Source: Nanobdellota archaeon (lineage in GTDB: Archaea > Nanobdellota > Nanobdellia > Pacearchaeales > GW2011-AR1). From it: a DNA stretch of 64,000 nt. Under the pieces are notes generated by a model. The model saw only the letters and a program-made list of their open reading frames with translations. It was not told the DNA's origin and did not search any database. Shown piece after piece: positions 35,304 through 58,271 of the stretch (positions within the stretch are counted from its first letter, which is position 1; each line of letters starts with the position of its first letter). A program made the translations under genes and the position numbers. The DNA is taken from the NCBI GenBank assembly GCA_038045705.1, contig JBBSXO010000006.1:44506-108505 (forward strand), read 5' to 3'.

Positions 35304-35306
35304 TTA

Positions 35307-36977: not shown

Positions 36978-37472
36978 TTATTTTATGATTGAGAATTCTG
37001 CCGAAGAAATAGAATCTGCATCAGCAGTTATACCCTTCAACTCAACTGTAATATCCTCCTTACCATCTTTATCTAGATCTATCTCATAAGTATTTCCTTC
37101 ATCTAAAATGAAAGAAAGAGCTATTTGCTCATCGTCAACATAATTGTTTAGACCATCTTCTAAGTCTAAAATTATGAAAGTTGGACCTTCTTTTCTCACT
37201 CCTTTATACTGAAGCCCATACCAATTACCATTAAATTCAAACTTTAACCTTCCAGGCTTCATATTGAAAGAATTGTCCTGTCCCAAAATAATCTCTGAAA
37301 CTGGAACGGCTGCACCACCAAACCCGGAATTAGATAATTCAGGCATAACAGCAACAATATCTAGTTCTTCACCTGAAGAGTTTACTGAATTCAGAAAGAT
37401 AAATATAACCAAGAAAAAGAGAAGACTGAAAAAAAGTACAAATGACTTAATTTTCATAAAACTCACTAGCAA
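36978..37472 (-). CDS. small secreted protein
   Basis: Signal peptide, 164 aa, first gene of the minus-strand surface-protein cluster. Confidence 0.3.
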   Translation of the reverse strand: MLVSFMKIKSFVLFFSLLFFLVIFIFLNSVNSSGEELDIVAVMPELSNSGFGGAAVPVSEIILGQDNSFNMKPGRLKFEFNGNWYGLQYKGVRKEGPTFIILDLEDGLNNYVDDEQIALSFILDEGNTYEIDLDKDGKEDITVELKGITADADSISSAEFSIIK

Positions 37473-38535: not shown

Positions 38536-38982
38536 ATGAAAATTAAAGTATTATTCTATATCTCTTTATTAGTGATAGCTTCTTTATTTTTGATCCAGAA
38601 TAGCTCAGCTAGCCCAGTGCCTAACGCTATTATGCCAGATTTAGTATTTACAAATATAACTTATAAGATCTCTTTTATTAATACAACTAATTCTGTAACC
38701 TATTGGGATGTAAGAGTTATAGGGACATTAACAAATAACGGGTCAATCTTCGCTACTTCTTCTACTAGCTCGAGTGGATTATCAAGAGTTGGAAGCACTT
38801 CTGGCTACGGGCAAGCTATTCCAACGCCTTCAATAATGCCTAGGGTAAGCACAAAAGTTAGATGGAATTTTGTAGGATATACTGGGCAATATTCTATGTG
38901 GTTTCATGCAGATGTTTTTAACAATGTAACTGAATTTGATGAAACTAATAATTTTATTGGCACAATTATAACTCTCCCTTAA
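38536..38982 (+). CDS. small secreted protein
   Basis: Signal peptide MKIKVLFYISLLVIASLFLIQNSSA. Length 148 aa. Confidence 0.3.
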   Translation: MKIKVLFYISLLVIASLFLIQNSSASPVPNAIMPDLVFTNITYKISFINTTNSVTYWDVRVIGTLTNNGSIFATSSTSSSGLSRVGSTSGYGQAIPTPSIMPRVSTKVRWNFVGYTGQYSMWFHADVFNNVTEFDETNNFIGTIITLP

Positions 38983-39505
38983 TAAATTTTGATGAATTCA
39001 TCATATTTTGTGCAGCTTTCAAGAAAGTTAAATCTCTATCTCTAATAAATTTACCTTCAACTTTAGTAGGCTTATCATTTTCAAAAGTTTCAATAGCTTC
39101 ATCTAAAGTCATCCAAACTAACTCAAACTCTTCAATCATTTCTTTCTCAGTAAATTGAGGTTTTCCTTTAGATAAAATCTTTCCAATATAACAATAAGAT
39201 ATCTGTTTCATATCAAAACCCCATTTGAAATTTTTATCAGAACGATATTCTACAATCTTACCAACTTCAGATTTTATCTCCATTTTAGCTCCGACTTCCT
39301 CAAGAGCCTCTCTTAGCAAAGCATTCTCTTTTGTTTCCCCTTCATCTATGCCTCCGCCTGGAAGCTTATGAAAATTTCCGCTTGCAACAAACAATATTGG
39401 AACTAAACCATTTTCATCAAAAAGAACAGCTCTTGAAGCCTCACGAAGTTTAATATTAGAATTCTCTTTAAAATCAGGATCTTTAAACTCTTTAAGAAGT
39501 CTCAT
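38966..39505 (-). CDS. NUDIX hydrolase
   Basis: Canonical Nudix box GGGIDEGETKENALLREALEEVGA (Gx5Ex7REUxEExGU). Confidence 0.7.
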   Translation of the reverse strand: MRLLKEFKDPDFKENSNIKLREASRAVLFDENGLVPILFVASGNFHKLPGGGIDEGETKENALLREALEEVGAKMEIKSEVGKIVEYRSDKNFKWGFDMKQISYCYIGKILSKGKPQFTEKEMIEEFELVWMTLDEAIETFENDKPTKVEGKFIRDRDLTFLKAAQNMMNSSKFIKGEL

Positions 39506-40305
39506 TTCAAATTTCCATATTTAGATAACAAATTACCTAGCTGTTCTTTTCTTTGACTAAGCCCAGCATATTTTTTCTCCTTAAAATAATGGCAATAATA
39601 AATATCCTGTAATAACCAGTTTAAGAAGATAAAATCTTGGTATTTTTCATCCCAAAATTGAGTTGAAGATATAGAAGAGTATCCTTTCCTAAACTGTTTT
39701 TGTTCTTTAGGTTTCTTAAACCACTTAAAGAATGCCTTACCAATAGCAAAAAGCTTTGGTCTTTCAGCAATACTATCTATATCTACAAGATAAACATTAC
39801 CATTTCTTAATCTAAGATTGCTACCATGAAGATCGTTTGCATCTAAAGTAAAAATGGGTTTTGTCTTCTTCAATAAAAACTGATATATTTTTTCTACTCT
39901 TTCAATTTCTTCTTTAGGCAAGAGTTTAGCCTTTCTTACTTCATTCAAATTCTTCTCAAATCTTCGCGTAACGCTGCCATTAACTTTTATTTTATTGATA
40001 TAAGCACAAATTTTACCAACCCGATAAATTACTGATTTTGACTCTTTCTTAATAAGGTCTCTTCCTTCAATATATTCATAAAGAACATCTTTTCCAACTC
40101 TTCCTAAAAATTTAGGTAAAAAGCCGTACTTTTCAAGTTTATGAGATATTTCTTCGAAATATTTAGCTCTTTTAAGAGTCTTATATTTTCTTAAAACATA
40201 TTTTCTTCCTTCGTAAGTAAGTAAATGAACTTCACCGCTCCAACCCTCTCCACCATCATCAGAAGTTAAAACAGATATTTTACCATTTTTTAATATATTT
40301 TTCAC
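39502..40305 (-). CDS. APH/choline-kinase-like (protein-kinase-like fold) small-molecule kinase
   Basis: Lys strand YVLRKYK, hinge YEYIEG, catalytic loop DLHGSNLRL (DLHxGN) and Mg site YLVDIDS. Confidence 0.5.
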   Translation of the reverse strand: MKNILKNGKISVLTSDDGGEGWSGEVHLLTYEGRKYVLRKYKTLKRAKYFEEISHKLEKYGFLPKFLGRVGKDVLYEYIEGRDLIKKESKSVIYRVGKICAYINKIKVNGSVTRRFEKNLNEVRKAKLLPKEEIERVEKIYQFLLKKTKPIFTLDANDLHGSNLRLRNGNVYLVDIDSIAERPKLFAIGKAFFKWFKKPKEQKQFRKGYSSISSTQFWDEKYQDFIFLNWLLQDIYYCHYFKEKKYAGLSQRKEQLGNLLSKYGNLK

Positions 40306-40898
40306 TTTAAATCTCCTAAGTGTTCATTATAATGTAATTTACTAATAAATAACTTTTTGTTCTTATCTAACTCTACAACAGTCACAGAAGCGTTAGGGCT
40401 ACCTTTCTCAATAATCTCAGAATTATCTTTATTTTTAACCAACAGCATTTTTAACAAAGAAACTTTTGTTCCACCATGAGTCATAATTAAAACTGTTTTG
40501 TCTTTCCATTTTTTACTATTCTCTGTTAAAAATGTCTCTGCCCTTTTATCAACATCTTCAGGAGTTTCTCCGCCAGGAGGAGCTTTGTTAGGATTATTCT
40601 TCCCCCATTCCTTTAACTCACCAGTAGGTTTACCTTCAAAAATACCCTTACCTCTTTCTCTCAAAAGATGAGAGTAATTAGCTTCCATTTTAATTATCTT
40701 TAATAATGGAGCAATAGATTCTCTACATCTTCCCAAATCTGAACAATAAACTAAATCTATTTTTTCATTTTTCAAATAATTAGCTAATTTTTCGACTTGC
40801 TTTAATCCAATCTCACTAAGTTTACCTTGATTTTGACCTTGAGTTATTCCTTCTTTATTTTCAACGGTTTCACCATGTCTTACAATAATTAATCTCAT
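40302..40898 (-). CDS. histidine phosphatase (phosphoglycerate-mutase-like) family protein
   Basis: N-terminal MRLIIVRHGETVEN (RHGE motif) and a later MTHGG. Confidence 0.7.
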   Translation of the reverse strand: MRLIIVRHGETVENKEGITQGQNQGKLSEIGLKQVEKLANYLKNEKIDLVYCSDLGRCRESIAPLLKIIKMEANYSHLLRERGKGIFEGKPTGELKEWGKNNPNKAPPGGETPEDVDKRAETFLTENSKKWKDKTVLIMTHGGTKVSLLKMLLVKNKDNSEIIEKGSPNASVTVVELDKNKKLFISKLHYNEHLGDLK

Positions 40899-41824
40899 TT
40901 TTCAGCCTCTAACCTTCTCTCTTTTTCCACGTTTAACATGGCTATATGGTTACCTATTGGAGTTAATGTTCTAAGCATCATAAGAAAATAATGGATTATT
41001 ATAGGATCTTCTTTTTTAATAAGCTCAAGGTTACTTTCAAAGTTTCCTTTTCTTGACTCAAAAAATTTCTGTACATTGTCCTTTTGATCATTAACTACCG
41101 CATTGTAAAGTTCTTGATAATGATCTCTTACTTCCTTAAGGAGTCTTAATTCAGACTCACTTAATTTTGGCTTCTTTTGAGCATTTAGATGATCATAAGA
41201 ATAATTGATAAGAAGAGAGATTTCAATAATTGCATTAAAAAAGTCGTAAGCATACTTTGAGTTTACTGAATCAAATATTTCTCTTTTGTTTATCAATCTC
41301 TTTGATAAATTACACAGCCTGCATAAAGTAGTGTGGAGTTCTTTTATCTCATAACTCATTTCAAAATTGCCTTTTTCACCTTCTTCTAACAAATAGTCTA
41401 ACTTTGAAAGCAAAATCCACATTATCTTTCTTACAATTTGGCCATACTCTGAATCATCTGTATGTACCATACACTTAAGTCTACATACATTATTATCACT
41501 CTTTACTAATTCAAGACCAGTTAATAATCTAAGATCTTCTCTGATTTGAGGCAATTGTTTAGGTGAAGTATATTTTATATTGATTTCATCAAATCCAGAA
41601 GTGTATAGGTGGCGGATAATTCTTCCAATATACCATTCACCTCCGTTTTCTAAAGGAATTGTTACTGGCTCAAAAGATTTGTCTTGTATTGATATAACAA
41701 GCTTTCCACGTGAAGGTTCTACATTAACTAATTGTCCTTGTTTGAGATTATTATTTTTTACCCAGTTAGATGGAAGCGAGACAGTGAGAGTACCTTCTCC
41801 GTGCTTTACAACTTTTCTCTTCAT
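40895..41824 (-). CDS. AbrB/SpoVT-N-terminal domain regulator with PhoU-like helical C-terminal region
   Basis: N-terminal swapped-hairpin KVVKHGEGTLTVSLPSNWVKNNNLKQGQLVNVE. The remainder is helical and PhoU-like. Divergent from the radical SAM gene. Confidence 0.4.
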   Translation of the reverse strand: MKRKVVKHGEGTLTVSLPSNWVKNNNLKQGQLVNVEPSRGKLVISIQDKSFEPVTIPLENGGEWYIGRIIRHLYTSGFDEINIKYTSPKQLPQIREDLRLLTGLELVKSDNNVCRLKCMVHTDDSEYGQIVRKIMWILLSKLDYLLEEGEKGNFEMSYEIKELHTTLCRLCNLSKRLINKREIFDSVNSKYAYDFFNAIIEISLLINYSYDHLNAQKKPKLSESELRLLKEVRDHYQELYNAVVNDQKDNVQKFFESRKGNFESNLELIKKEDPIIIHYFLMMLRTLTPIGNHIAMLNVEKERRLEAEK

Positions 41825-41849
41825 AGTTCGAGAAATATAAGTTCTTTAT

Positions 41850-41905
41850 TTAAATTTATGGTTATGTACACATATTTATACAATGTGTGTTTATACACAC
41901 AATAA
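41850..41905. promoter_or_regulatory. divergent promoter region with three TTTATACA repeats and TGTACACA palindrome
   Basis: atgtacacatatttatacaatgtgtgtttatacacacaataagtatata lies between the divergently transcribed regulator (40895-41824) and radical SAM gene (41936). Candidate BRE/TATA plus operator sites. Confidence 0.3.
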
Positions 41906-41935
41906 GTATATAATAAAACCTCAGATATATGAGTT

Positions 41936-42919
41936 ATGACTCAAACAATAGAGAATGTATTGGGAAGATTCCCTTTACGCGTTTCTATTACAGATAATTG
42001 TAATCTATCTTGTGTTTTCTGTTCAAATGAAGGTTTAGGAGCAGAACGTAACCAAGTTTCAATGCAACCAGAAGATTTTCGATATTTAGCAACCACATTA
42101 AGAGCTCATGGACTAAATCATATTTCTCTTTCGGGCGGAGACCCAACTGCTCATCCTGCTGCACGAGAAATGGTTGAAATTGCTAATGAATCAGAAATTC
42201 CTCAAAGATTCTACCATACCAATGGAATACTTCTTGGAAGAGATGGACTAGCAGATGCTCTTGAACAATTTAGTAAAATTGGAGTTTCACTACATACAAC
42301 TGATTCCGCAAGATATAGCCAAATAACTGGGGGGAGACCAGCACATTATGATAAAGTAATGGCTGGATTAAAATCTCTAGGGGAAAAAGGATTGGGACAA
42401 AAAGTAGAGGTAAAACACGTTACTGTAAAAGGAATGAATGATGACTCTGAATCTTTGAGTGGTACTCTAGATTTATGCGCACAGTACGGTTTCAAATTTA
42501 AATTTCTAAATTTTGAAGCAATTCATGCTGGACAGGTTGGTTTAGTGCAGAATGCAGAAGTAATTAGACAAAGAGTTAGAGATTTAGGAGCGGTTCATCT
42601 TCCTGACCAAGGAGGAGTTTTCAGAGGACAGGATTCTTACTTACCAATTCAATGGTTTAGTTACAAAGGAACTAAAGGCGTTGTTATAGATGTTGGTTGC
42701 GGAAGACCTGAGGTTTGCAGAAGCTGTCATGATTCTAATGAAATATATGTAACTCCCAAGCTCAGCATAAAGCCTTGCAAAATGAGCAGTCATGAAATTT
42801 CTCTTAAAGAAGCAATTGATCGTAGAGATGAAGGAGCACTTATAAGTTCAATAATGGAATCAAGAGCATTCTTACGCACACAACCAGGATTAGGTAAAAC
42901 CTATTGGGAGCAAAGATGA
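41936..42919 (+). CDS. radical SAM enzyme, MoaA-like (GTP 3',8-cyclase family)
   Basis: LRVSITDNCNLSCVFC (CxxxCxxC) aligns with MoaA LRISVTDRCNLRCxYC. Also LSGGDPT, TNG and a C-terminal CRSC...PC second-cluster-like motif. Visibly GC-richer than surrounding DNA. Confidence 0.65.
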   Translation: MTQTIENVLGRFPLRVSITDNCNLSCVFCSNEGLGAERNQVSMQPEDFRYLATTLRAHGLNHISLSGGDPTAHPAAREMVEIANESEIPQRFYHTNGILLGRDGLADALEQFSKIGVSLHTTDSARYSQITGGRPAHYDKVMAGLKSLGEKGLGQKVEVKHVTVKGMNDDSESLSGTLDLCAQYGFKFKFLNFEAIHAGQVGLVQNAEVIRQRVRDLGAVHLPDQGGVFRGQDSYLPIQWFSYKGTKGVVIDVGCGRPEVCRSCHDSNEIYVTPKLSIKPCKMSSHEISLKEAIDRRDEGALISSIMESRAFLRTQPGLGKTYWEQR

Positions 42920-43593
42920 ATAAAAAATTAGTAATGTTATATACAAAGTTCCCTGAAATTGGAAAATCAAAAACAAGAATAGCAAGAGAAAGCTCAGAAT
43001 TATTCGCGTATATTGTAAGTCTTTGCACACTTAAGGATACTATAAACAAAGTGAGCAATTCAAAAAGTTATGATTTTATTGCAGTAGTTAATAGTAAAGA
43101 AGAGTCTCAATTGTTCAGAGAGAAACTTGGAATTAATGTTTATGTTTTAAATGAATCTTTATTACAAAGCGACCAAAGTCAAAGATTTTCATTTCTATTT
43201 TCCAATTTTAAGAAAAGCTATGAAAAAATAATTTTAATCCCAAGTGATGTTCCCTCAATCGCCGAATCTAGCCTAATTAACGCATTTAATATTTTGGAAA
43301 ATAATGATTATGTATTTGGCCCAGAATACAATGGAGGAGTATACCTTATCGGAATGAATAAAAATCCAGACAATATTTTTGATAGAGTTAGATGGAGTAC
43401 TGAAAATTCTTTTAAAGATTTAGTAAATAATAGTAAAAACAAAAGTTATCTGTTAAAATTAAAGGGTGATCTCAATAAATTACAAGACTTAAATTTATTT
43501 AAAGAAGACATAGAAAAAAGATCCCCATTACTCTATGAGTTTCTTGCTAATAATTTCTACAAAGGGGTCAAAATTAATTATGCTTACAATTGA
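42904..43593 (+). CDS. DUF2064/TIGR04282 family (MobA/CofC-like nucleotidyltransferase fold)
   Basis: N-terminal LYTKFPEIGKSKTRIA (cf. AKxPxxGxVKTRL) and GPEYNGGVYLIGM (cf. GPAxDGGYYLLG). Confidence 0.5.
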   Translation: MGAKMNKKLVMLYTKFPEIGKSKTRIARESSELFAYIVSLCTLKDTINKVSNSKSYDFIAVVNSKEESQLFREKLGINVYVLNESLLQSDQSQRFSFLFSNFKKSYEKIILIPSDVPSIAESSLINAFNILENNDYVFGPEYNGGVYLIGMNKNPDNIFDRVRWSTENSFKDLVNNSKNKSYLLKLKGDLNKLQDLNLFKEDIEKRSPLLYEFLANNFYKGVKINYAYN

Positions 43594-44209
43594 ACTATTT
43601 GGTATTTCAAGAACAGGTAAAACTTCTACTTTGAGAAACCTTGCTTCACATTTCGAAGCAAATGGAGAAAGATGCGAAATTATTGGAAGAGCCCCAATAG
43701 ATTTCAAAAGTTGTAGAGATCTTGAAGACTTTCATCAAAAAATGCTATTATACTTAGAACAAAGAATTCCAGAGGCTCAAGAAAGAAAACCACATTATCT
43801 GTTGATGGACAGAGGACCTTATGATAGGCAAGTTATGCTAGAAGCAGACCATCAAGACGGAAAAGTAGGAGATCAAGTTTATAGAGATGCAACCCAAAGA
43901 CTGCTTAGTTTAGAACCAAAAATTGATATTCCTTTAATTTTTCTTGTAGATCCTACAACTTCTCTAGCTAGAATTGGTTCACAAAGAGACGAAGGCCTAG
44001 ACTATTCTCATATGTGTGTTGGGCTTAACACGAGAGACAATGTTGCTGAATTAGGTAGATTATTTGATCAGTATTCTGCTTTACAAAGGGCAAAGAAAGG
44101 CATTATAAGCGTTTATACTGGCGGAAGTGCAACAGATACATTACAATCAGCCTTAAGGGTAATAGCATCGACAAAAGTTAAAAACAATGGAGAACATACA
44201 CAATCATGA
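43583..44209 (+). CDS. P-loop deoxynucleoside/nucleotide kinase-like protein
   Basis: Walker A GISRTGKTS and LLMDRGPYDR (DR motif of the dNK/TMPK fold). The start is probably the Met at MLTIELFG rather than the ORF-track start at 43535. Confidence 0.5.
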   Translation, partial: LTIELFGISRTGKTSTLRNLASHFEANGERCEIIGRAPIDFKSCRDLEDFHQKMLLYLEQRIPEAQERKPHYLLMDRGPYDRQVMLEADHQDGKVGDQVYRDATQRLLSLEPKIDIPLIFLVDPTTSLARIGSQRDEGLDYSHMCVGLNTRDNVAELGRLFDQYSALQRAKKGIISVYTGGSATDTLQSALRVIASTKVKNNGEHTQS

Positions 44210-44718
44210 AAGAAATAGAGATTAAACTAAAATACAGCGATGAAAATGCGCTAAGAAAGAAAATAAAAAGTATTGGAAAACACACAGAGACCTATGAGAT
44301 TGTTGATTGTTATTATGGAAGAGATGGCGAAAACATGAAGACTGCTGAAAAATTGCTAAGGATAAGAACAAAGAAAGGAGTATCTGAGCTTACATTTAAA
44401 GGTAAAAAAGAGACAGAAGGAAATGTCTGGGAAAGAGTTGAGATAAATGTTCCAATTGGGGATTCTGAGAAGATGGAACTTGTTCTAAAAAACCTTGGAC
44501 TAAAAAGAATTCTAAAAAATCGAACAATTAGAGAATACTGGAACATTAATGGAACAGAATTAGGAATTATGAAAATTAAAGAACCAGCAGAAGTTGATTT
44601 TGTAGAGATCGAAGGTAAAACTAAAGAAGATGTTGAAAGAGTTACTGGCTTGTTTAAAGGAATTTTAGAGCCTATTGGTAAAGACCATTTCAAAAAATTA
44701 GATGAGGCTAACAAATAA
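44206..44718 (+). CDS. CYTH-domain (triphosphate tunnel metalloenzyme) protein
   Basis: N-terminal EIEIKLK (ExExK), RIRTKK, ERVEINV and EIEGKTKE glutamate pairs characteristic of CYTH/CyaB-ThTPase. Confidence 0.65.
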   Translation: MKEIEIKLKYSDENALRKKIKSIGKHTETYEIVDCYYGRDGENMKTAEKLLRIRTKKGVSELTFKGKKETEGNVWERVEINVPIGDSEKMELVLKNLGLKRILKNRTIREYWNINGTELGIMKIKEPAEVDFVEIEGKTKEDVERVTGLFKGILEPIGKDHFKKLDEANK

Positions 44719-45290
44719 TGTTGCCAGAGATATTTATCATAAGGCATCCAGAAACAATCAATAATAAAGAAAAGATCATTGAAGATCCTATGGGAGGAGA
44801 TTTATCTGAATATGGTAAATCTCAGATACCTGATGCAGTTAAGAGTTTATTATCTTTAGAAATTTCTAAAGTATACTCTAGCGATTCTGCACGATGTAAA
44901 GAACTTGCTGAAGCATTTTCTAATGAATCTGAGATAGATATCCATTATGATCCTATGCTTCGCGAAGTCAATAGTGGAGATTGGATCGGCATGAAAAAAA
45001 TAGAAGTTAAAAAGCTTATAGCACAGAATAAAAGACCAAGAAATGGAGAAAATTTAGATCAATTAATGCAAAGAGCTAAAGTTGTCCTTAACAAATTAAT
45101 TCAAGAAAAAGGTAGAATATTATTAATCACTCATGGTTGTCTAAGTAAAATGATTATAGGTGCAACAATGAATATGGGTGCTTATGAAGCAGATGAAAAA
45201 GTAAGCATAAAAAATTGTCAGATAATAAAATTGGATTTCAAAAATATAGGGTCAAAACAGATTCCACTTATTCAAAACAGAAAAAATTAG
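44718..45290 (+). CDS. histidine phosphatase family protein (second copy in cluster)
   Basis: N-terminal IFIIRHPETINN (RHxE) and a late LITHG. Overlaps the CYTH stop codon. Confidence 0.55.
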   Translation: MLPEIFIIRHPETINNKEKIIEDPMGGDLSEYGKSQIPDAVKSLLSLEISKVYSSDSARCKELAEAFSNESEIDIHYDPMLREVNSGDWIGMKKIEVKKLIAQNKRPRNGENLDQLMQRAKVVLNKLIQEKGRILLITHGCLSKMIIGATMNMGAYEADEKVSIKNCQIIKLDFKNIGSKQIPLIQNRKN

Positions 45291-45313
45291 AGGTATAGTG
45301 ATTGGATTAATTA

Positions 45314-45628
45314 ATGAGGAACACACTACAAAAAGAGAAAAGTAAAGAAAATCTTTTATCTGAGATGCTCTCATATCTCGAACCAAAGGAAACTATCCAA
45401 ATTAATGGGAAACTTTCTTATAAGGAAAGTTTAGGTTCTTGGAATGTAATTCAATTGCAAAAAGAGATTATTGATTTATTTCCTCAACTTAGAGAGAAAA
45501 GAAGTAATTTTGGTTATACTATGTTCTATAATCGCTCGTTTAAGGAATCGAGAAAAATAATTGATGAGCTAGAAAAAAACGGGGTTGTTCCTATTTTTCT
45601 GTTGTTAGGTAAGGTAAAAGAAAGATAG
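45314..45628 (+). CDS. conserved small protein, copy 1 (paralog at 61145-61459)
   Basis: 104 aa, about 80% identical to the inverted copy 16 kb away (LSYLEPKETI.I.GKLSYKE.LGSWNVIQLQKEIID.FPQLREKR..FGYTMFYNRS.KES.KI..ELEK.GVVPIFLLLGK). Confidence 0.4.
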   Translation: MRNTLQKEKSKENLLSEMLSYLEPKETIQINGKLSYKESLGSWNVIQLQKEIIDLFPQLREKRSNFGYTMFYNRSFKESRKIIDELEKNGVVPIFLLLGKVKER

Positions 45629-45675
45629 TAAACTAGAATCTGAAGTTTTTTATATCATCGATATCTAGAGATTTT

Positions 45676-46644
45676 ATGAAAAAAGAACCAATCTCAAAGA
45701 GACAGCATTATGTTAATCAAGCTTACTTAAAAAATTTTAGAATAGAAAGTACGGAAGATAGTTTATTTATGTATGATAAAGAGAAAATGTCTATTGCTAG
45801 GGTAAAAACTGCAAATGTAGCCAGCGAGAATTTCTTTTATGATAGGACAGAAGAGCGCATTATAGAGAAGACTTTAGCAGAATTTGAAGGTAAATGTAAT
45901 GTTATCTTAAAAAAGGTCATCGAAAAGGAAGATTTAGACCAATTAATTAGTGAAGAAAAGGAGCTTTTAGCGACGTTTTTAGCAGTTCAATTTTTAAGAT
46001 CAAAAGAATTAAGAATTGATTATAAACAGATTGCAGAGGCTGTTTTAGAAAGGGTTGCTGAGAAAATAGTTCCAGATTTTAAGAAAGGAGATATTAAAGT
46101 CGTAGAAGATTCTTTATCTGGACTTCATGTACATACGATTTTTAAAGAATCTGGACATTTTGCAAAATTATTTCTTGATAAATCATGGAAATTATGTATC
46201 AATAATTCCTCTATTCCTTTTTGGACTTCCGATAATCCTTGTGCAATACATAACGATCTTGAGCCAGAACCATTCAAAAGCAATCTAGGAATTGAATGTA
46301 AGGGCTTTCAGTTGCATTTTCCATTATCTTCAAGGTTACTCTTAATAATTATTGACAAAAACATTAAGGTAATTGATTTAAGTAATGCAAAAGAAATAAA
46401 ATATCCAAAAAAGAGAAGTTTTTACAGGAATATAGATAAGAAACTAGACGTTCCTTTATTTACTTTAATGCCTCCAAAGGAATTTGTTGGAGGGGACAGA
46501 GTTACTTTTGAGAATAATTTGCAGGTAATATCTGCGACAAGATTTATCTTTTCTTCAAATGAAGATTTTTCTCTTGCTGACAAATATTTAAAAGAACAAC
46601 CGATACATAGAAATGCAAATAGAGGAAGATTTAAAGTAATGTAA
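45676..46644 (+). CDS. DUF4238 family protein
   Basis: N-terminal KRQHYVNQAYLKNF matches the DUF4238 signature (H-x-h-P/N-Q-x-Y-L-K-x-F). Confidence 0.45.
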   Translation: MKKEPISKRQHYVNQAYLKNFRIESTEDSLFMYDKEKMSIARVKTANVASENFFYDRTEERIIEKTLAEFEGKCNVILKKVIEKEDLDQLISEEKELLATFLAVQFLRSKELRIDYKQIAEAVLERVAEKIVPDFKKGDIKVVEDSLSGLHVHTIFKESGHFAKLFLDKSWKLCINNSSIPFWTSDNPCAIHNDLEPEPFKSNLGIECKGFQLHFPLSSRLLLIIIDKNIKVIDLSNAKEIKYPKKRSFYRNIDKKLDVPLFTLMPPKEFVGGDRVTFENNLQVISATRFIFSSNEDFSLADKYLKEQPIHRNANRGRFKVM

Positions 46645-46700
46645 TTGACTATCAATTTAATATCTAAAATTTTAAAATCTCCTAATGATTTCGGAGAATT

Positions 46701-47270
46701 ATGAAAAAAGAATGCGTTGAACATTACAATAAGATTAAGATAAGTAATATCAGCATACTTAGTTCTAACAAAAAGTTAAGCGACTATGAGAGAAATTTAA
46801 AACTAGAATATGCCCGAGAAGAGCAATACGAGTCTGACTCATTTAATCTTAAACTTGCAGATAGTAGATGTAACTTGGGTGGTTGGCGTCTCTGGTTTAT
46901 GTGTCAAGGGTGCGAAAAGAAAGTTGGAACCCTATTCTACAAATATGACCCTCAAAATCTAAGATGTAGAAACTGTTTAAATCTTACTTATGAGGCAAGA
47001 CAGAATAAAAGAAAAGAGGCATTTCATCTTATTGGTAATGCAATAAGGCTTAAACAAAAATATGATTTAATAGGAGAAAGGCTGTTAAGGAAAGGAATAC
47101 ATGCAAAGACTCGCCTCAGACTTTGGTCAGAAAAAACAATATTAGGGGAAGAACTAATAGAAGTTCTAGCCTTACAAAAAGAAGTCTTATCCAATAATTC
47201 TGTTAAATATGGAAAAAGAATGCAAGAACTAATAGAAAATAAAAAATTAGATTTTACAACAAGACCATAA
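46701..47270 (+). CDS. zinc-ribbon protein, hypothetical
   Basis: CQGCEKKVGTLFYKYDPQNLRCRNC in a 189-aa basic protein. Confidence 0.3.
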   Translation: MKKECVEHYNKIKISNISILSSNKKLSDYERNLKLEYAREEQYESDSFNLKLADSRCNLGGWRLWFMCQGCEKKVGTLFYKYDPQNLRCRNCLNLTYEARQNKRKEAFHLIGNAIRLKQKYDLIGERLLRKGIHAKTRLRLWSEKTILGEELIEVLALQKEVLSNNSVKYGKRMQELIENKKLDFTTRP

Positions 47271-47499
47271 TTACAATTTTCTATTACCTTCTTTATCTAA
47301 AATTATTCTTTCCTTTTACATATTTTATAAGAACTAAGAAAATTCCTAAAATAACAGACACTACTCCTGAAGAAGAGTTGCTTAGTGGAAATGAAGGATA
47401 AAGAGCCTTTGCAATTAATAGAGCCATGTAGATTACCACTGCTGAAACAAAGAAGACTCTAAAAGCTCCTATAATATCCCCTACAACATTATCAGACCA

Positions 47500-48096
47500 G
47501 TGTTTAGCCATAGAAATTATGATTATCCTAAATATTTAAATTCTTTCAACCTTTATAAAAATATGGGAAATAGAGAGTATCAAGTATGGGATAAAAAAGG
47601 AGAAGGAGAAGAGTCTTGGATGCAATTTAGAAGATTTGCAGTATCTTATAGAAAGGCTTTTCAAACATGTATTAAAAAAGAAGTTGAAGATGCATCAAAC
47701 GGCTTAATATTTGATGATGAAGATATTTTTCCATCTTTGTTATTATTCAATCATTATGTAGAACTCTCTTTGAAAGCCTTACTTGAAAAATCTGGAAGCA
47801 ACTTTAAAAGTCATATTTTAAAAGATTTATTAGAAGAGGTTGAAAAGAACTATCCTGACTTTAAACTCAGCAACTTACCAAGAAAATTAATAACTGATAT
47901 TGATTTAATTAACCCAGCTAGACCTTTATTAGACCACGAAGGTTTTAGGTATCCTTTAGATAATAAAAGAAATAAGATCTGGGTTACTGAAAGAAATAAT
48001 CATGCTTTTATTGTTCTTGGTGGAGTTCATACTTCTTCAATAAATCTAATAAATGAGATAGAAGCTTACTTTAAAGATAAGATAATAAAAGCTTAG
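47500..48096 (+). CDS. hypothetical protein
   Basis: 198-aa ORF, no motif. Confidence 0.25.
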   Translation: MFSHRNYDYPKYLNSFNLYKNMGNREYQVWDKKGEGEESWMQFRRFAVSYRKAFQTCIKKEVEDASNGLIFDDEDIFPSLLLFNHYVELSLKALLEKSGSNFKSHILKDLLEEVEKNYPDFKLSNLPRKLITDIDLINPARPLLDHEGFRYPLDNKRNKIWVTERNNHAFIVLGGVHTSSINLINEIEAYFKDKIIKA

Positions 48097-48113
48097 TATT
48101 CTAATAATTTAAT

Positions 48114-48542
48114 ATGACTACAAAAAACACAATCCGTAATTCAGATAGATCAAAGTTAAATAAACATAAGAAGACCATTTTAGAGCATTATTTATCTAGC
48201 TTTAATTCAGAACATTTTTGCAATAGGTGTAAGAAAGTCTTGCCCTTGCCAGAACTTGAGATACATCATCTTAGCTATGAAACTGAAAGTTATCGCTATG
48301 GAGAAATAGTTTGCAGACCTTGTCATGAGGCTACCGAAAAAGGTATTATTTCTTCTTTTCATGAGCAAAAAAACACAGGTATTCAGAATGTCTTTGTATT
48401 TCAGAAATATTTATCTGGAATGGCAATTATCTCTAGATTAGAAGACGGAAGAATCTTGCAGAGGATGAGATTAAGACTTAGAGCTGGGGAAGAAGTAAAA
48501 CCATTAGTTTTAATGGGGATTTTTACAGATAGAAAGATATAA
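48114..48542 (+). CDS. HNH endonuclease domain protein
   Basis: CNRCKKVLP...EIHHLSYETESYRYGEIVCRPCHEA (Cys4 plus HH...N/H pattern of the HNH fold). Confidence 0.5.
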   Translation: MTTKNTIRNSDRSKLNKHKKTILEHYLSSFNSEHFCNRCKKVLPLPELEIHHLSYETESYRYGEIVCRPCHEATEKGIISSFHEQKNTGIQNVFVFQKYLSGMAIISRLEDGRILQRMRLRLRAGEEVKPLVLMGIFTDRKI

Positions 48543-48566
48543 ATTAGGTTTCTTGATAGAGTTTTC

Positions 48567-48872
48567 ATGGAAATTGTTAAACAAATATTGGCAACAGTTC
48601 TATTTTTAGCAATGGCTTATGTTGCCTTTGATGTAAGCTTATTATTTTTTATTTTCTTCATTTTAGGTGGAATATATTCTCTGATATTTCATGATGCTTG
48701 GGAAAGACCAGGGGTTCCAATTTTATGGTTTGCTGGAGGGCTTATTTGTAGAGTAGCTTTATCAGGAATATTGCTTCCAATCTTGAAATATGAAAATTTA
48801 ATAGATCTAGTTATAGGATTATTTGCTTTCGGAGTAGTTTATTTAATAGGTCACAGAGTTAGGAATGGATGA
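48567..48872 (+). CDS. small membrane protein
   Basis: 101 aa, three TM helices. Confidence 0.3.
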   Translation: MEIVKQILATVLFLAMAYVAFDVSLLFFIFFILGGIYSLIFHDAWERPGVPILWFAGGLICRVALSGILLPILKYENLIDLVIGLFAFGVVYLIGHRVRNG

Positions 48873-49457
48873 ATGATGCCTAAAACCTTTGAAAAACAAC
48901 AACTAACAATAAATTGGATTTTAGTAGGCATAGCTATAATTGGACTATATTTCACACACCTTCAAATTAATATAAATGATCAAAATACTAAGTTATATGA
49001 ACAGACTGTAAGACCAAATATAAAAATAAGTTCTTACAATCTTGACAGTAACCTTGAGGTTTATTATCGGAATAGAATTTCTGCTATAAATCTAGATAAT
49101 TCTTCTGGTACGGTTCTTAATTTTTTCATTACCAATATCGGAAAAATTGATGCTAAATGGGTTTCCATTATGATAAATAATTCATGGGCATCAAATATCC
49201 GTTTAAATTTTGATAACATATCTTCAGGAGAAACCGAATTTGGACAGATAATCATGACTACAAGAGAGTGCCAAGATTGGAACATATTTGGAAAATCTGA
49301 AGGAAAAAGTTTAGATTCTTGCAAAGCAAGTGAGAATAATATAAGTTTAGGAAAGGAAAATATAGAACTTAAAATAGAATGTATAAATTGCGACCCTCCA
49401 ACCCAATATCAAGATTTAGAAGTTTGCTTTGAAAGTATTAATAACAATATTTGCTAA
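48873..49457 (+). CDS. membrane-anchored secreted protein, hypothetical
   Basis: N-terminal TM, Asn-rich ectodomain with six Cys. Confidence 0.3.
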   Translation: MMPKTFEKQQLTINWILVGIAIIGLYFTHLQININDQNTKLYEQTVRPNIKISSYNLDSNLEVYYRNRISAINLDNSSGTVLNFFITNIGKIDAKWVSIMINNSWASNIRLNFDNISSGETEFGQIIMTTRECQDWNIFGKSEGKSLDSCKASENNISLGKENIELKIECINCDPPTQYQDLEVCFESINNNIC

Positions 49458-49568
49458 AATCAAAGGATTAGGTTTATACAAGTCGTTTAAAAAATATCAA
49501 AAATGCCACAAAACTAATAAATAAAATGAATGGACAAGACTTAATTACATCTAAATGTTAGAGAAAAT

Positions 49569-50600
49569 ATGCCTCAGAAAACTATGATCTATGAAATAAA
49601 AGAAATGAAACAACAAGAAAATAATAAATCTGTTAGTCATAAGTATAGACTTATAGGTGTAATTATAGGGGCAATTATTAGTGCTATATTTTTAGTTTCC
49701 ATCCTAATGAGTAATCCATTTAGTATCCAAAATCTTATGTTTGGAGCAATACCTTTTATTATTTGGATAATCTTAGGATTATATATTGGGCACTCTATAG
49801 AAAGAAAACATTATAGGACTTTGATGGTTTTCTCAATATTTTTTATTATTCCAATCATACTTAATCTTGCTGGTCCAGTAAATGAATTTATTTATCCTGA
49901 AAGCACTTTTAGTGAGAAGATTACTATAAGATTTGATTCTGTTAACTCAGACAATAAATCCTATGTTAATTATGATAATCCCCTTTTGGATAGTACTGCT
50001 GTTTGGAATTCAGTTTATAATGCAACAGTAATTAAAGATGGCTATGTCGATGGGGTTGGTGATAAAAAATACTTCTTAACCAAAGGTACTAAAATAACTC
50101 TAGAAAAGGGTGATGGAAATATTAGTAAAATTTATAATAATTACATTAAAACAGGCGTAGAGCCAAAATTGGCAGAGAATTATATCCAACAAAGCTATGG
50201 GAGTCGTACACCACCAATAATTGGAGAAAATTATGAAGTGATACTGTTTAGTGGGGATGGCAAATCATTTTCCTTCCAACATTATGTGGATGATAAAGGT
50301 CTAACTCTATCACAAGAGTATGGTAAAAAAACAGCCTTGTCTAATGGCTTATTTTCTCTTGTTATTCTATCAACTCCAATTTATGTTTTTACTTACGGCT
50401 TTTTTATATGGTATATGTTTTTAATAATGACTTATGGTTTAGGACTAATCTTTATTATTTTGGGGTTATTTATCACAAATTGGGCATCTAAAGATCACGT
50501 GGGAAATATAAGAAGAATTGATTTCTTAATAATTTTCTTACAATATCTAACTTGTTTGGGAACGATTATTACTTTAACGGGCATATTACCAACTTGGTAA
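49569..50600 (+). CDS. membrane protein, hypothetical
   Basis: N-terminal 3 TM and C-terminal 3 TM flanking a soluble domain. Last gene before the attR repeat. Confidence 0.3.
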   Translation: MPQKTMIYEIKEMKQQENNKSVSHKYRLIGVIIGAIISAIFLVSILMSNPFSIQNLMFGAIPFIIWIILGLYIGHSIERKHYRTLMVFSIFFIIPIILNLAGPVNEFIYPESTFSEKITIRFDSVNSDNKSYVNYDNPLLDSTAVWNSVYNATVIKDGYVDGVGDKKYFLTKGTKITLEKGDGNISKIYNNYIKTGVEPKLAENYIQQSYGSRTPPIIGENYEVILFSGDGKSFSFQHYVDDKGLTLSQEYGKKTALSNGLFSLVILSTPIYVFTYGFFIWYMFLIMTYGLGLIFIILGLFITNWASKDHVGNIRRIDFLIIFLQYLTCLGTIITLTGILPTW

Positions 50601-50734: not shown

Positions 50735-50747
50735 CCGGGACGGGCGT
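50735..50747 (+). repeat. attR core: 13-bp direct repeat CCGGGACGGGCGT
   Basis: Identical to tRNA-Asp positions 21067-21079. An imperfect inverted copy ACGCCCTGCCCGGGC lies at 50823-50837. Confidence 0.55.
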
Positions 50748-50909: not shown

Positions 50910-52082
50910 TTGATACGGAAGAGCATGAAAATAGACCCATACAACCACGAAGAAAAATACAAAGCTTGGAGAGAAAGAGTTACCAATGGTATTCCCGATA
51001 TTTCCAAACAAAATTCTGATTTAATACTGACTTATCTGAAAGATATGGAACTAGGAATAAATATTGGAAATGGTAGCACTAAAGGTGCTAGAGGCTATAA
51101 CAGATTAAATTCCTTAAGGGATAAACTATGTTTCTTCTCAAAACAATTTAAGTCGCATTTTGATATAGATAATATAACAACCATTTCTGAAGACCAGTTA
51201 GTTGGTTTCTTTGCAAAAATGACTTCAGGTGATATCAAACGTATAGATGGAAAAACTTACACATCAGTAGATACCTATTCCAAAATCTTTAGAGCATTTT
51301 GGCATTGGTGGCAAAAAGTAAATCGTAAAAAAGGAGTCGATATTAAGGATATAACTACAGACTTAGATACGAGACAAAAAAAGCCAAAATGGGTATACAT
51401 GACTGAAGAAGAAGTCAAGAAATTAACAGAAAACGCTCGTTTCGATTATAAGGTGCTAATCTATTTCTTGTTTGATTCTGGAATCAGATCTCCTACGGAG
51501 TTAGTTAATGTAAAAGTTTCAGATTTATTCAATAACTATAAAGAAATGAACATTAGAGAGGAAGCAAGTAAAACATTTGGTAGAAGAATAAAGCTTATGA
51601 TCTGTTCAGATCTTATAAAGGAATACATAAAATCTAAGAAACTTACTCCAGAGGATCAGTTATTTGATATACATCATGCTACTGTTAATCGTTACCTTAA
51701 ACGCTTAGCAACAAGAGTCTTTGGAGAAAGAGAAAGTCCTGCTGGTGAGAAATATTCAAACCTTACCATGTATGACTTTAGGCATATCTCATGCTGTTAT
51801 TGGCTTCCACGTTACAAATCTGAAAGTGCATTAAAGTATCGCTTTGGCTGGAAAGAATCAGATAAGATCCACTATTATTCTGAATTGTTAGGTATGAGCG
51901 ACACAATAGCGGAAGATGACATGCTTATAGATGTTACAAAAACCGAGATTGAGAAAGAACTGGAGAGATCTAAGAAGGAAAAAGAAATACTTCAAGAAAA
52001 GATGCAGACAATGGAATTACAGATGGTGAAGATAATGGAATTAGTAAAACAATTAACAGTGAATGCTATTCCTCAGACATGA
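50910..52082 (+). CDS. int: tyrosine recombinase / integrase (paralog of 21162-22334)
   Basis: Same boxes as the first integrase (DSGIRSPTELVNV, YDFRHISCCYWL, KIHYYSELLG). About 65% identical to it. Confidence 0.7.
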   Translation: MIRKSMKIDPYNHEEKYKAWRERVTNGIPDISKQNSDLILTYLKDMELGINIGNGSTKGARGYNRLNSLRDKLCFFSKQFKSHFDIDNITTISEDQLVGFFAKMTSGDIKRIDGKTYTSVDTYSKIFRAFWHWWQKVNRKKGVDIKDITTDLDTRQKKPKWVYMTEEEVKKLTENARFDYKVLIYFLFDSGIRSPTELVNVKVSDLFNNYKEMNIREEASKTFGRRIKLMICSDLIKEYIKSKKLTPEDQLFDIHHATVNRYLKRLATRVFGERESPAGEKYSNLTMYDFRHISCCYWLPRYKSESALKYRFGWKESDKIHYYSELLGMSDTIAEDDMLIDVTKTEIEKELERSKKEKEILQEKMQTMELQMVKIMELVKQLTVNAIPQT

Positions 52083-52316: not shown

Positions 52317-53813
52317 TTAAGAAACCTTATCTTTTAGTTCAAGTAATCCTTTCTTAATTTCATCAACTAAACCCAATGTTTCTTGAAGTATCTCTTTACT
52401 AGGTCTATAAACAATATTTTCTTCTTCATATTTCTTATATTTTGAGATACTTAAGTCAAATTCATTCTCTTTTATCTCGCTAATTGGAACAAAGAAATGT
52501 TTCTTCTTTCGATCTTCATTTGACTGTTCTTTTCTTTTTTTAAAACTCTCAATAATATTTGGAATATCATTTTTATCTGGCTGTTTGGTTCTTTTATCAT
52601 CTAAACTATATCCATCATATTCCATATCATAAAACCATACTCTCTGAGTTGGTTCTCCCTTTGTGAAGAATAAGACTGCAGTAGAAACCCCAGCATATGG
52701 CTTGAATACTCCTGAAGGCATTGAAATAACTGCATCTAACCTGCATTTCTCAAGAAGAAGATTTCTTACATCTTTATGGGACTTGGAATTACCAAATAAA
52801 ACTCCGTCTGGAACTATTACGGCACATCTTCCTCCATTAGCTAGAGAATTATACATTAATTCTAAGAATAGGAGCTCGGTTTTCTTTGTTTTTATTCTGA
52901 AATTATCACTCATTTCAGATTCATCAATAGACCCCTTAAATGGAGGATTTGCTAAAATTAAGTCGTAAGTGTTATCTTCATTGTATCTTTTTGATAATGT
53001 ATTAATTTGTTGTAGATTTGGTCTTGATATACCGTGCATCATTAAGTTCATTAAAGCTATTCTGACCATAGTTTGGTCTATATCATACCCATAAATTGAT
53101 TCTTCATCTAAAAGCTGTTTTTGTTTAGCGTTTAATTTATCCCCTTTGAAATTGTATTCATTTCCTTCTTCATCTTTTTTGATTAAATCTTTAGAGGTAT
53201 TTTGTCTAAGAATATGTTCATAAGCATTAACAAGAAATCCAGCAGTTCCACATGCAGGATCTAAGATTCTATCTCCATATTCAGGGTTTCCCAATTCAAT
53301 CATCATTTTGATTATATGTCTTGGAGTCCTAAACTGACCATTTTTTCCAGCTGTTTGAAGCTCTGATAAAAGAAATTCGTATATATCCCCTTGAGTATCT
53401 GTATTTTGTTCTTTGATATGCATATCATTAATTATCCTTACTGCCTCAATCAATAAAGAGGCAGTGGGTATCTCAAAGTTAGCATTTCGCATATACTTGG
53501 AGTAGTAAGAATCTCCTTTGTCAAGATTTCTTAAAAATGGAAATACTTTATCTCTCACATGGTCACTAATCTTATCTGCTGAATAGTTTGACCACTGAGA
53601 CCATTTGCAGTCTTCATGTCCTTTAAACATGGATTGATGTGGTTCGCCTGTAAGTGTTCCTTCTTGTTGTTTTCGTATGTCTTCATCTTCTAAACGCCTC
53701 ATAAAAATAAGATAGGATATTTGTTCGATTGCTTGGAGAGGATTGCTAATGCCTCCGCTCCAAAACTTATCCCATAATTTCTGGACTTTTGATTTTAGTT
53801 CATTGTGTAACAT
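52317..53813 (-). CDS. hsdM: Type I restriction-modification system methyltransferase subunit
   Basis: HsdM N-domain, motif I DPACGTAGFL and motif IV LANPPF. Confidence 0.8.
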   Translation of the reverse strand: MLHNELKSKVQKLWDKFWSGGISNPLQAIEQISYLIFMRRLEDEDIRKQQEGTLTGEPHQSMFKGHEDCKWSQWSNYSADKISDHVRDKVFPFLRNLDKGDSYYSKYMRNANFEIPTASLLIEAVRIINDMHIKEQNTDTQGDIYEFLLSELQTAGKNGQFRTPRHIIKMMIELGNPEYGDRILDPACGTAGFLVNAYEHILRQNTSKDLIKKDEEGNEYNFKGDKLNAKQKQLLDEESIYGYDIDQTMVRIALMNLMMHGISRPNLQQINTLSKRYNEDNTYDLILANPPFKGSIDESEMSDNFRIKTKKTELLFLELMYNSLANGGRCAVIVPDGVLFGNSKSHKDVRNLLLEKCRLDAVISMPSGVFKPYAGVSTAVLFFTKGEPTQRVWFYDMEYDGYSLDDKRTKQPDKNDIPNIIESFKKRKEQSNEDRKKKHFFVPISEIKENEFDLSISKYKKYEEENIVYRPSKEILQETLGLVDEIKKGLLELKDKVS

Positions 53814-58026: not shown

Positions 58027-58271
58027 TCTTTCACCTCAAAATTCCATTGCTTTTGCTTTATGTTGACTCTTTCGTATTCGCTTTCTATTCCTTTCTTTTG
58101 TTTTGTAAGAGGGTTACCTACTATTTCCTGCTGAACCAGCTCCCTTAGTTTTTGGTGAATGCTTTTGTTCTCGGCTTCACATATCTTCATAATATTAGCA
58201 AATTCAGAGCGGTAGAGCTTAGTTGAAACTACTCTTCTACCTTCACCTCTTGTAATGGAGTCATTTGACAT
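58023..58271 (-). CDS. small DNA-binding protein (RHH-like) downstream of hsdR
   Basis: 82 aa. VVSTKLYRSEFANIMKICEAENKSIHQKLRELV fits a beta-strand plus helix-helix pattern. Confidence 0.3.
   Translation of the reverse strand: MSNDSITRGEGRRVVSTKLYRSEFANIMKICEAENKSIHQKLRELVQQEIVGNPLTKQKKGIESEYERVNIKQKQWNFEVKE

Follow-up and report, generated by a model that had tools for sequence, protein, structure and literature searches.

A small orphan gene, probably of the element core, at the border of exchangeable cargo in tandem integrative elements of a DPANN archaeon

Recombination directionality factors (RDFs), the Xis proteins or excisionases of elements with an integrase, are small, basic and diverse in sequence, and are usually encoded next to int. 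The C proteins of restriction-modification (R-M) systems are Xre-type HTH proteins of approximately 80-100 aa, encoded just upstream of the restriction gene, and the small partners of radical SAM enzymes comprise RiPP precursors, PqqD-like recognition proteins and the MoaD/ThiS sulfur carriers. As for gene order, the available parts of two published reports describe, for P2-like phages and P4-like satellites, defence hotspots flanked by conserved core genes (PMC9122126) and, for Pseudomonas aeruginosa, core defence hotspots (PMC10250203). The locus presented here is like these hotspots, as far as those parts describe them, in that near-identical backbones carry different defence cargo between two conserved flank genes. 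In our case the flanks are a small gene on the one side, and an integrase gene or a PDDEXK_1 gene on the other. A literature search, incomplete in its coverage, retrieved no description of the small-protein family, of DPANN integrative elements of VirB4 type with such a layout, or of a gene cluster combining radical SAM, DUF2064, CYTH and His-phosphatase genes.

The whole stretch of DNA analysed, referred to as the window, comprises 64 kb and holds two copies of the small gene. The best explanation, to which we assign a probability of about 0.58, is that the small gene is a core gene of an integrative element, located at the border of a bay for defence cargo, and that it encodes an orphan protein, which we infer to be a non-enzymatic factor. 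Loci outside the window are designated with L numbers, and the two elements within it are E1 and E2.

Two related elements in tandem at tRNA-Asp

The window comprises two related integrative elements, which stand in tandem at the tRNA-Asp gene of a DPANN archaeon (Woesearchaeota/Pacearchaeota/Nanoarchaeota group). The integration target is tRNA-Asp(GTC) at 21007-21078 on the forward strand, and the last 12 nt of this tRNA, CCGGGACGGGCG (21067-21078), are the att core. A second copy of CCGGGACGGGCG at 50735-50746 on the same strand marks the junction of E1 and E2; the 12-mer was found twice only in the window, with 0 occurrences expected by chance. The tyrosine integrase gene of E1 (21162-22334, forward; Pfam Phage_integrase) adjoins tRNA-Asp. 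Its counterpart in E2 (50910-52082, forward) encodes a protein 62% identical to the E1 integrase, and 98.7, 76, and 74% identical to the integrases of L002, L026, and L001, respectively. Homology with L002, a locus from a Nanoarchaeota MAG, joins position 50735 straight to 21098 and runs into tRNA-Asp (21098-20961) and the chromosomal flank. The L002 genome has an E2-like element alone, with E1 precisely missing. Since L002 joins these two positions, E1 is delimited as approximately 21079-50746, with E2 starting at approximately 50747. The original prediction had spoken of two tandem elements, and this is borne out by the two integrases, the 3' end of tRNA-Asp repeated at 21067 and 50735, and the lack of E1 in L002. 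A module with a VirB2/TrbC-type pilin, a PrgI-like protein and a VirB4/TraG-type ATPase is located at 23495-28076. When all ORFs of the window were compared against each other, the integrase and the small protein were the only gene families common to E1 and E2. A search against Rfam returned two tRNAs and nothing else.

Copy 1 of the small basic protein gene, taken from the ORF and its translation, is located at 45314-45628 on the forward strand (104 aa, pI 9.5), and copy 2 at 61145-61459 on the reverse strand (104 aa, pI 9.3). They are core genes of E1 and E2, respectively, as in a whole family of DPANN elements that integrate at tRNA genes, and each of the tandem elements carries a copy of its own. 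The gap between the copies is 15.5 kb. By BLASTP, 78 of 94 aligned residues are identical (83%, E 3e-55), so the pair, predicted as approximately 80% identical proteins encoded on opposite strands 16 kb apart, is as it was described. The two proteins differ in the first 17 residues or so and at the last few.

Cargo replacement at the 3' end of the small gene

The E1 cargo bay, from copy 1 to the att repeat (45676-50600, forward), contains a DUF4238 gene and further ORFs of 189, 198 (HEPN-like), 142, 101, 194, and 343 aa; the distance from copy 1 to att is 5 kb. The E2 bay, from copy 2 to the integrase (52317-61100, reverse), contains a Type I R-M system together with one HEPN gene and four further ORFs that are unknown. 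Within it hsdR (58356-61100) follows directly after copy 2, and hsdS (54666-55820) and hsdM (52317-53813) lie further on, all on the reverse strand.

Comparison with close relatives located the ends of both bays. L002 matches E2 at 92.8% nucleotide identity from 62767 to 61158, a segment spanning the B12 radical SAM, nucleoside 2-deoxyribosyltransferase-like (NDT) and small genes, and the homology stops at 61158, 11 nt short of the copy-2 stop codon. It resumes from 52273 to 50735 at 97.7% identity, a segment that begins 190 nt past the stop of the integrase gene and ends with the att core. The cargo enclosed by the two matching segments measures 6.8 kb in L002 and 8.9 kb in the window and is unrelated, and that of L002 includes an N6_N4 methyltransferase (MTase) with an AlwI-type restriction enzyme, a PDDEXK_1 gene and others. 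In the same manner, L023 from a Woesearchaeota MAG matches E1 from 40895 to 45624 at 92% nucleotide identity, ending 2 nt before the copy-1 stop; past this break an hsdR-first Type I R-M system replaces the DUF4238 gene and the six further ORFs of the window. With a break at the 3' end of either copy, cargo replacement thus has a reproducible, fixed inner border there.

The contexts of the small gene were sorted into 19 distinct architectures. The genes downstream were highly variable and mostly related to defence. Type I, II or III R-M systems or MTases followed in approximately 10 of the 19 architectures, and AbiE and HEPN-MNT in two. The R-M and MTase cargo comprised Type I systems in two gene orders, Type II systems (an N6_N4 MTase with an AlwI-type enzyme, or of MvaI/BcnI type), a Type III-like MTase with a helicase, and a Dam MTase with a MORC-like ATPase. 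Other cargo consisted of a C5 MTase followed by a Piwi and TIR pair (pAgo-TIR), AbiEi/AbiEii, HEPN-MNT, HEPN, DUF4238, and unannotated genes. Among otherwise near-identical elements the bay exchanges R-M, toxin-antitoxin, pAgo-TIR and other genes, mostly of defence type, with several of the ORFs unannotated.

On the far side, the cargo was followed in eight architectures (L001, L002, L004, L017, L018, L026, L038, and E2) by a tyrosine integrase of the kind present in the window. Related integrases stood beside the small gene in L001, L002, L004, L008, L017, L018, L026, and L038, and the distance from the small gene to the downstream integrase was 0-9 kb in eight architectures. In four loci a tRNA gene (Ser, Asp, Tyr, and Ser, respectively) lay just past the integrase. 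L038 had no cargo at all, and here the small gene and the integrase gene were adjacent and convergent, 5 nt apart. In seven loci the R-M cargo was closed on its far side by a PDDEXK_1 gene of approximately 215 aa (60-89% identical), which is absent from the window. From its border at the small gene the bay extends as far as integrase and att, or as far as a PDDEXK_1 gene, and the order in a circularised element is always accessory modules, small gene, variable cargo, and integrase/att.

Exchange of cargo would occur by homologous recombination, with the flanking homology presumably supplied by the small gene together with the integrase or PDDEXK gene. The small gene of L025 is a mosaic. Its 5' half belongs to the copy-1 lineage at 30 of 33 informative sites, and its 3' half to the copy-2 lineage at 23 of 36, with a max-chi2 of 22 and a permutation p of 0.0002; sliding identities were also examined. 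This mosaic shows that recombination occurs inside the small gene, be it among copies residing in one genome or from one element to another.

A short motif, AGTTTTTTATA, composed of a T-run and a TATA-like box, follows both copies, at 45644-45654 on the forward strand (22-24 nt upstream of the first cargo ATG at 45676) and at 61122-61132 on the reverse strand (approximately 23 nt upstream of the hsdR start at 61100). The exact 11-mer has these two occurrences only in the 64-kb window. The motif, or a variant differing in one base, was found in the downstream intergenic region of six architectures, and in five of the six (L013, L023, and L025 among them) it was positioned approximately 22-24 nt before the downstream ATG. 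In L025 it lies 92 nt from the small-gene stop and the spacing to the downstream ATG is kept, while in L008 it is farther from the called start, with a spacing that fits an in-frame upstream ATG. Similar boxes, RRnTTTWWATA, occur approximately 24 nt before the start codons of many genes in the window. The motif was for a time considered as an element specific for the locus, which was rejected, since it matches the ordinary TATA-type box of the genome and tracks the downstream ATG, not the stop codon of the small gene. Judged by general knowledge of archaeal transcription signals, it is probably an archaeal TATA-type promoter of a nearly leaderless cargo transcript, and the T6 run in it might in addition serve as a terminator for the transcript coming from upstream. 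The cargo would then be read from a promoter of its own just past the small gene. A sigma-70/terminator scan, which does not apply to an archaeon, gave nothing.

Upstream radical SAM modules and alternative explanations

Each copy is the last gene of a radical SAM operon. The module upstream of copy 1 (41936-45290, forward; Pfam) consists of genes for a MoaA/viperin-like radical SAM protein (41936-42919), DUF2064 (42904-43593), a P-loop kinase-like protein (43535-44209), CYTH (44206-44718), and His_Phos_1 (44718-45290). The first of these proteins resembles MoaA (106 bits) and, weakly, viperin, with a PADLOC pVip score of 47 bits. The DUF2064 protein resembles TIGR04282, and the NCBIfam matches of the upstream-module proteins all lie under the curated cut-offs. 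Copy 1 starts 23 nt after His_Phos_1, and a small gene of this type may be co-transcribed with the His_Phos_1 operon. The module upstream of copy 2 (61515-63763, reverse; Pfam, PADLOC and NCBIfam) consists of genes for a Csa3/CasR-like wHTH protein (63176-63763; PADLOC CasR/CARF-type HTH), a B12-binding radical SAM enzyme (61919-63175; PADLOC PDC-M51A, 1e-19), and the NDT-like protein (61515-61922; Nuc_deoxyrib_tr). The terminal position of both copies in nucleotide-enzyme/radical SAM operons, and the annotation of their neighbours, agree with what had been read from the sequence originally. As a separate observation, a 309-aa gene diverges from the copy-1 operon and is related to a 303-aa gene of L019. 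A direct comparison showed no relation between the 309-aa gene and the 313-aa HTH gene that diverges from the small gene elsewhere.

Among the 19 architectures, 11 have a radical SAM module upstream, belonging to two module families, and eight have none. The MoaA-like/CYTH module was found in E1 and, likewise conserved beside the small gene, in L001, L023, L024, and L025. L038 carries a reduced and distant form of it, with a radical SAM protein 20% identical over 274 aa (E 8e-8) and a weakly CYTH-like gene of 219 aa. The B12 radical SAM/NDT module was found in E2, is conserved with the small gene in L002, L012, L026, and L031/32, and is also assigned to L003, where the contig includes no more of it than an NDT-homologous fragment. 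The loci free of radical SAM genes have instead a divergent 313-aa double-HTH gene (L004-7, L008-11, L033, and L035), a divergent 64-aa gene (L013), a thymidylate synthase block (L016/17), a 108-aa gene (L018), an AbrB-like 303-aa gene and a 111-aa gene (L019-22), MazEF (L037), or housekeeping genes (L039). In spite of this the small protein is conserved there, with P0016, for example, present on 12 contigs and P0021 on 14. In a neighbour-joining tree based on the 89-column core, the small proteins did not group by upstream module, and op1-type and B12-type sequences were interleaved. Indeed, L013, which has no radical SAM gene, and L026, which has the B12 type, were sisters with 100% bootstrap support. 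The upstream radical SAM modules are thereby shown to be exchangeable accessory modules, and they are not the reason why the small gene is there.

The main rival to the reading of the small gene as a border gene is that its product works as a partner dedicated to the radical SAM nucleotide modules, by product-binding, immunity, activation or as a carrier, with the adjacency to R-M genes being secondary. The gene order speaks for it to some extent. In 11 of the 19 architectures, which is commoner than chance would give, a radical SAM operon ends with the small gene in the same orientation, and this is so with two unrelated families (MoaA-like/CYTH and B12/NDT). The link to a MoaA-like radical SAM gene and a CYTH-like gene recurs in a member only about 50% identical, with a gap of 3 nt, and the breaks between close relatives never part the small gene from the module. 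In these respects it is like the known small radical SAM partners, being a short ORF that ends radical SAM operons. Against this stand the eight architectures in which the protein is kept without a radical SAM gene, and the fully supported pairing of L013 with L026. In the B12-type loci, moreover, a box comparable to that of the cargo promoter, TTAATATAAA, is located approximately 24 nt before the small-gene ATG, so that the small gene in these loci is probably an independent transcription unit. The protein lacks Cys and a C-terminal Gly-Gly, and its core is neither Cys-rich nor variable, which argues against a RiPP precursor and against a carrier of MoaD/ThiS type, and unlike PqqD it has no match to that Pfam family. 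One family member bears the JGI label "radical SAM enzyme YgiQ", and the possibility that the small protein is a radical SAM fragment was rejected by hhalign against the neighbouring B12 radical SAM protein, which gave a probability of 0.1. We consider a dedicated partnership unlikely, albeit worth keeping in mind, and the small gene is probably no dedicated helper of the adjacent radical SAM enzymes. The proposal that it encodes a carrier, substrate or immunity partner of these enzymes was not upheld, given the eight architectures, the L013/L026 sisters and the lack of hallmark residues.

In a more far-reaching version, the small protein would be a dedicated subunit that antiviral radical SAM modules for nucleotide modification in DPANN archaea have in common, across two or more unrelated classes. 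As a subunit the protein might bind the product or confer self-immunity, and the members lacking radical SAM genes would have been left behind, or would act with modules located at other places in the genome. In a separate reading, the conserved junction directly after the stop codon of the small gene would be a capture site for defence cassettes. We regard these readings as improbable.

More doubtful still is a function as controller of the downstream R-M or defence genes, i.e., as a functional analogue of C proteins that would time restriction after entry into a new cell. The protein is small and basic, an R-M or DNA methyltransferase gene lies within three genes downstream in approximately 10 of the 19 architectures, mostly co-oriented, and the promoter-like motif between the small gene and the first cargo gene is conserved in six. 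Like the genes of C proteins, the small gene is in some loci directly upstream of, and co-oriented with, R-M genes on mobile DNA. Unlike C proteins, its product has neither an HTH signature of HTH_3 type nor any Pfam match, the gene is also found where R-M genes are lacking, and R-M genes, where present, have a promoter-like element of their own in front of them. Cargo other than R-M follows copy 1 and the small genes of L018, L026, L031, and L039, and there is no cargo in L038. The motif resembles the ordinary promoter consensus of the genome, and the conservation of the small protein exceeds that of the integrase (83 vs. 62%), which would be unexpected for a regulator of ever-changing cargo.

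The divergence of the two copies bears on how they arose. Their similarity at the DNA level forms an inverted repeat of 274 nt (45348-45621 vs. 61161-61434) with 78% identity; the 400-nt flanks could not be aligned except for the short motif after the stop codon. When eight orthologous loci were aligned with 150-nt flanks, the similarity collapsed at either end of the ORF. For copy 1 against copy 2 the Nei-Gojobori estimates were dN 0.16, dS 1.73, and dN/dS 0.094, and other pairs of small genes gave dN/dS of 0.02-0.13. Either copy is closer to orthologues from other genomes than to the second copy of the window: the copy-1 protein is 98% identical to that of L023 and 90% to that of L025 (dN/dS 0.04-0.09), and copy 2 is nearly identical to P0007 from L002 (dN 0.008). 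The copies are genuine protein-coding genes, long diverged and under strong purifying selection, and the dS and dN/dS values exclude a recent segmental duplication. Such a duplication, or decaying and functionless recombination remnants, might be suggested by two inverted copies within 16 kb of mobile DNA, and can practically be dismissed, as it is already refuted by DNA similarity limited to the ORF core, by the dS, and by two intact ORFs with closer orthologues elsewhere. The flank alignment, which the original prediction had put forward as the check for a duplicated segment, thus gave no support to one. Of the further suggestion that the copies are recombination remnants linking the elements, the remnants must be given up, the genes being intact and under purifying selection, while the idea of a conserved junction at which flanking modules are swapped stands.

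The small-protein family and comparison with known systems

The close subfamily of the small protein consists of 22 clusters with 65-99% identity, and those with a name are from Pacearchaeota, Nanoarchaeota, and Woesearchaeota MAGs. A profile search against 1.8 billion representatives, clustered at 50% identity, extended the family to 165 clusters with E<=1e-3, and the stricter limit of E<=1e-10 was reached by 64 clusters; all labelled members belong to DPANN archaea. Almost all are of 60-130 aa with a core of approximately 85 residues, and pI values lie in a range from 9.2 to 10.0. The broad consensus is L.P...GK..Y.E...AWN.IRLKKEIL..FPQLK.K...F.Y.M...EL...K...P.LL., and its conserved positions are aromatic, aliphatic and basic, with a uniform conservation over the core. 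No conserved Cys, His or Asp was present in the family alignment, and the C-terminus reads LLLGKVKE with a variable tail, and not Gly-Gly. Both copies and 111 family members were without a match in Pfam at E<0.1 and without a significant match in PHROGs. PADLOC gave no meaningful match, PDC-M05B being hit by 4 of the 111 members with a best E of 3e-5. Searches of sequence profiles against the PDB returned noise only, fold searches returned no match, and no winged-helix or Xis-type DNA-binding fold was detected for the small protein. Relatives were absent from IMG/VR viral contigs, PLSDB plasmids, and INPHARED phages. We also considered a relation to the RusA Holliday-junction resolvase and rejected it: a C-terminal segment of RusA occurs solely in the chimeric member P0043, where it follows residue 64 as a fusion, and the family profile against E. 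coli RusA gave a probability of 0.06.

An AF2 model based on 22 sequences was poor (pLDDT 58), and that based on 111 sequences reached pLDDT 79 and pTM 0.61. The latter has three short helices and long, confident, unpaired extended segments without an intramolecular sheet, which would be compatible with an obligate oligomer. The conservation pattern, the basic charge, the lack of catalytic residues and the oligomer-suggesting model point to a non-enzymatic binding protein. With low confidence we suggest an oligomeric nucleic-acid-binding factor of regulatory or architectural type, similar to an RDF or to a controller of cargo.

The resemblance to RDFs lies in size, charge and location, and is a resemblance, not membership. 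The small protein has a core of 85-105 aa and a pI of 9.2-10, and it is present in every element copy with a tyrosine integrase; in the cargo-free L038 its gene adjoins int, and elsewhere only the cargo separates it from int/att. Unlike RDFs, it has no detectable winged-helix or Xis-type domain, its gene is convergent with int instead of adjacent and co-directional, and its conservation exceeds that of the integrase. By those defining features of sequence or fold that were tested, the small protein belongs to none of the C proteins, Xis/RDFs, RiPP precursors, MoaD/ThiS, and RusA.

Mobile elements and immunity are poorly charted in DPANN archaea. For the mining of defence genes in this group, the small-protein core of about 85 residues, combined with the integrase of the element or with PDDEXK_1, offers a landmark that delimits a cargo bay. 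The bay has already yielded Type I-III R-M systems, AbiE, HEPN-MNT, pAgo-TIR and several unannotated candidate systems, and the other side of the small gene exposes two uncharacterised radical SAM nucleotide modules. The window in addition documents the tandem accretion of integrative elements bearing VirB4 and pilin genes at an archaeal tRNA gene. A role for the conserved orphan family, be it in the control of excision, in the control of cargo or as a radical SAM partner, would add a part to the biology of archaeal mobile elements.

Genes that border a cargo bay are already known elsewhere, and what is new here is an orphan core gene in this position on a mobile element. Two differences set the locus apart from the hotspots of P2-like phages, P4-like satellites and Pseudomonas, as far as the available parts of the reports describe these. 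Firstly, it belongs to an archaeal (DPANN) element which integrates at tRNA genes, carries a VirB4/pilin module and has an orphan gene as one flank. Secondly, the small gene is adjoined, opposite to the cargo, by a second exchangeable slot, which the radical SAM modules occupy.

Integrative elements at tRNA genes

Two integrative elements lie in tandem at the tRNA-Asp gene; together with that gene the first covers 21007-50746, and the second begins at 50747. Two copies of CCGGGACGGGCG, one at 21067 and the other at 50735, bound the first element, E1 (~29.7 kb), and in the related genome represented by locus L002 precisely this element is missing. The second element, E2, extends past the window end. 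No element is inserted in the tRNA-Ser(GGA) gene of the window (5677-5762); its orthologue in L026 is the insertion site of an E2-like element, and the integrases of this element and E2 share 76% identity.

Within E1, a conjugation or DNA-transfer-like module of this DPANN archaeon was found at 23495-28076, comprising a TrbC/VirB2-type pilin, a PrgI-like protein and a VirB4/TraG-type ATPase. This module also precedes the gene for the 104-aa protein, hereafter the small gene, in L001, L008, L023 and L035. On the minus strand of E1, very large ORFs reaching 1016 aa make up a 9-kb block (28192-37472), and one of them has Ig-like and cadherin-like domains; the products may be element-borne surface or adhesion proteins. 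The related elements L001 and L023 are without this block.

Contents of the cargo bays

The variable stretch beyond the 3' end of the small gene, the cargo bay, holds in E2 an interrupted Type I R-M operon (52317-61100). A HEPN-domain gene (53800-54669) splits the operon between hsdS and hsdM, and four unannotated ORFs (55817-58271) separate hsdR from hsdS. In the Pacearchaeota element L001, the cargo bay contains a short pAgo/TIR pair (13209-16110), a Piwi-domain protein of 511 aa adjoining a TIR-domain protein of 457 aa, with the small gene on one side and an integrase next to tRNA-Ser on the other. At the side opposite to the small gene, R-M cargo ends with a PDDEXK_1 nuclease-like gene of ~215 aa in L001, L002, L003, L008-11, L025, L033 and L035 (e.g., L008 14266-14919). 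This gene, split in L001, shows 60-89% identity among loci, and no homologue of it was found in the window.

Unusual copies of the small gene

The small gene of L025 (8001-8315) is a mosaic, its 5' half resembling copy 1 of the window and its 3' half copy 2 (permutation p 0.0002), which is evidence that the gene has undergone internal recombination or gene conversion. The L024/L029 contig of 1.7 kb carries the CYTH, His_Phos_1 and small-gene end of the copy-1 module at 73% nucleotide identity to the window; the bin in which it was deposited bears the name of a CPR bacterium, Candidatus Staskawiczbacteria, which probably reflects mis-binning, the alternative being cross-domain transfer. In L037, the chimeric ORF P0043 (1062-1514), adjoining a MazE/PemK pair, starts with 64 residues of the small-protein family and continues as a RusA-type resolvase, of which it has the C-terminal half. 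Kinship of the family to RusA was rejected, since the family itself has no RusA similarity and the RusA part is a fusion in P0043.

Enzyme modules beside the two copies

Next to copy 1, a dense cluster of nucleotide-handling genes (38966-45290) is arranged in two divergent sets, with every family match below curated cut-offs. One strand encodes NUDIX, a 267-aa ORF, His_Phos_1 and an AbrB/MazE-like protein of 309 aa, and the divergent set a MoaA/viperin-like radical SAM protein, DUF2064, a kinase, CYTH and another His_Phos_1; the two His_Phos_1 proteins share 32% identity. The cluster is a candidate nucleotide-analogue pathway, for which no match was found in the literature. Beside copy 2, at 61515-63763, a Csa3/CasR-like wHTH gene comes first, together with a B12-binding radical SAM gene and a nucleoside 2-deoxyribosyltransferase-like gene, and this trio is kept in L002, L012, L026 and L031/32. 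Its B12-binding radical SAM protein matches the PADLOC candidate PDC-M51A at 1e-19.
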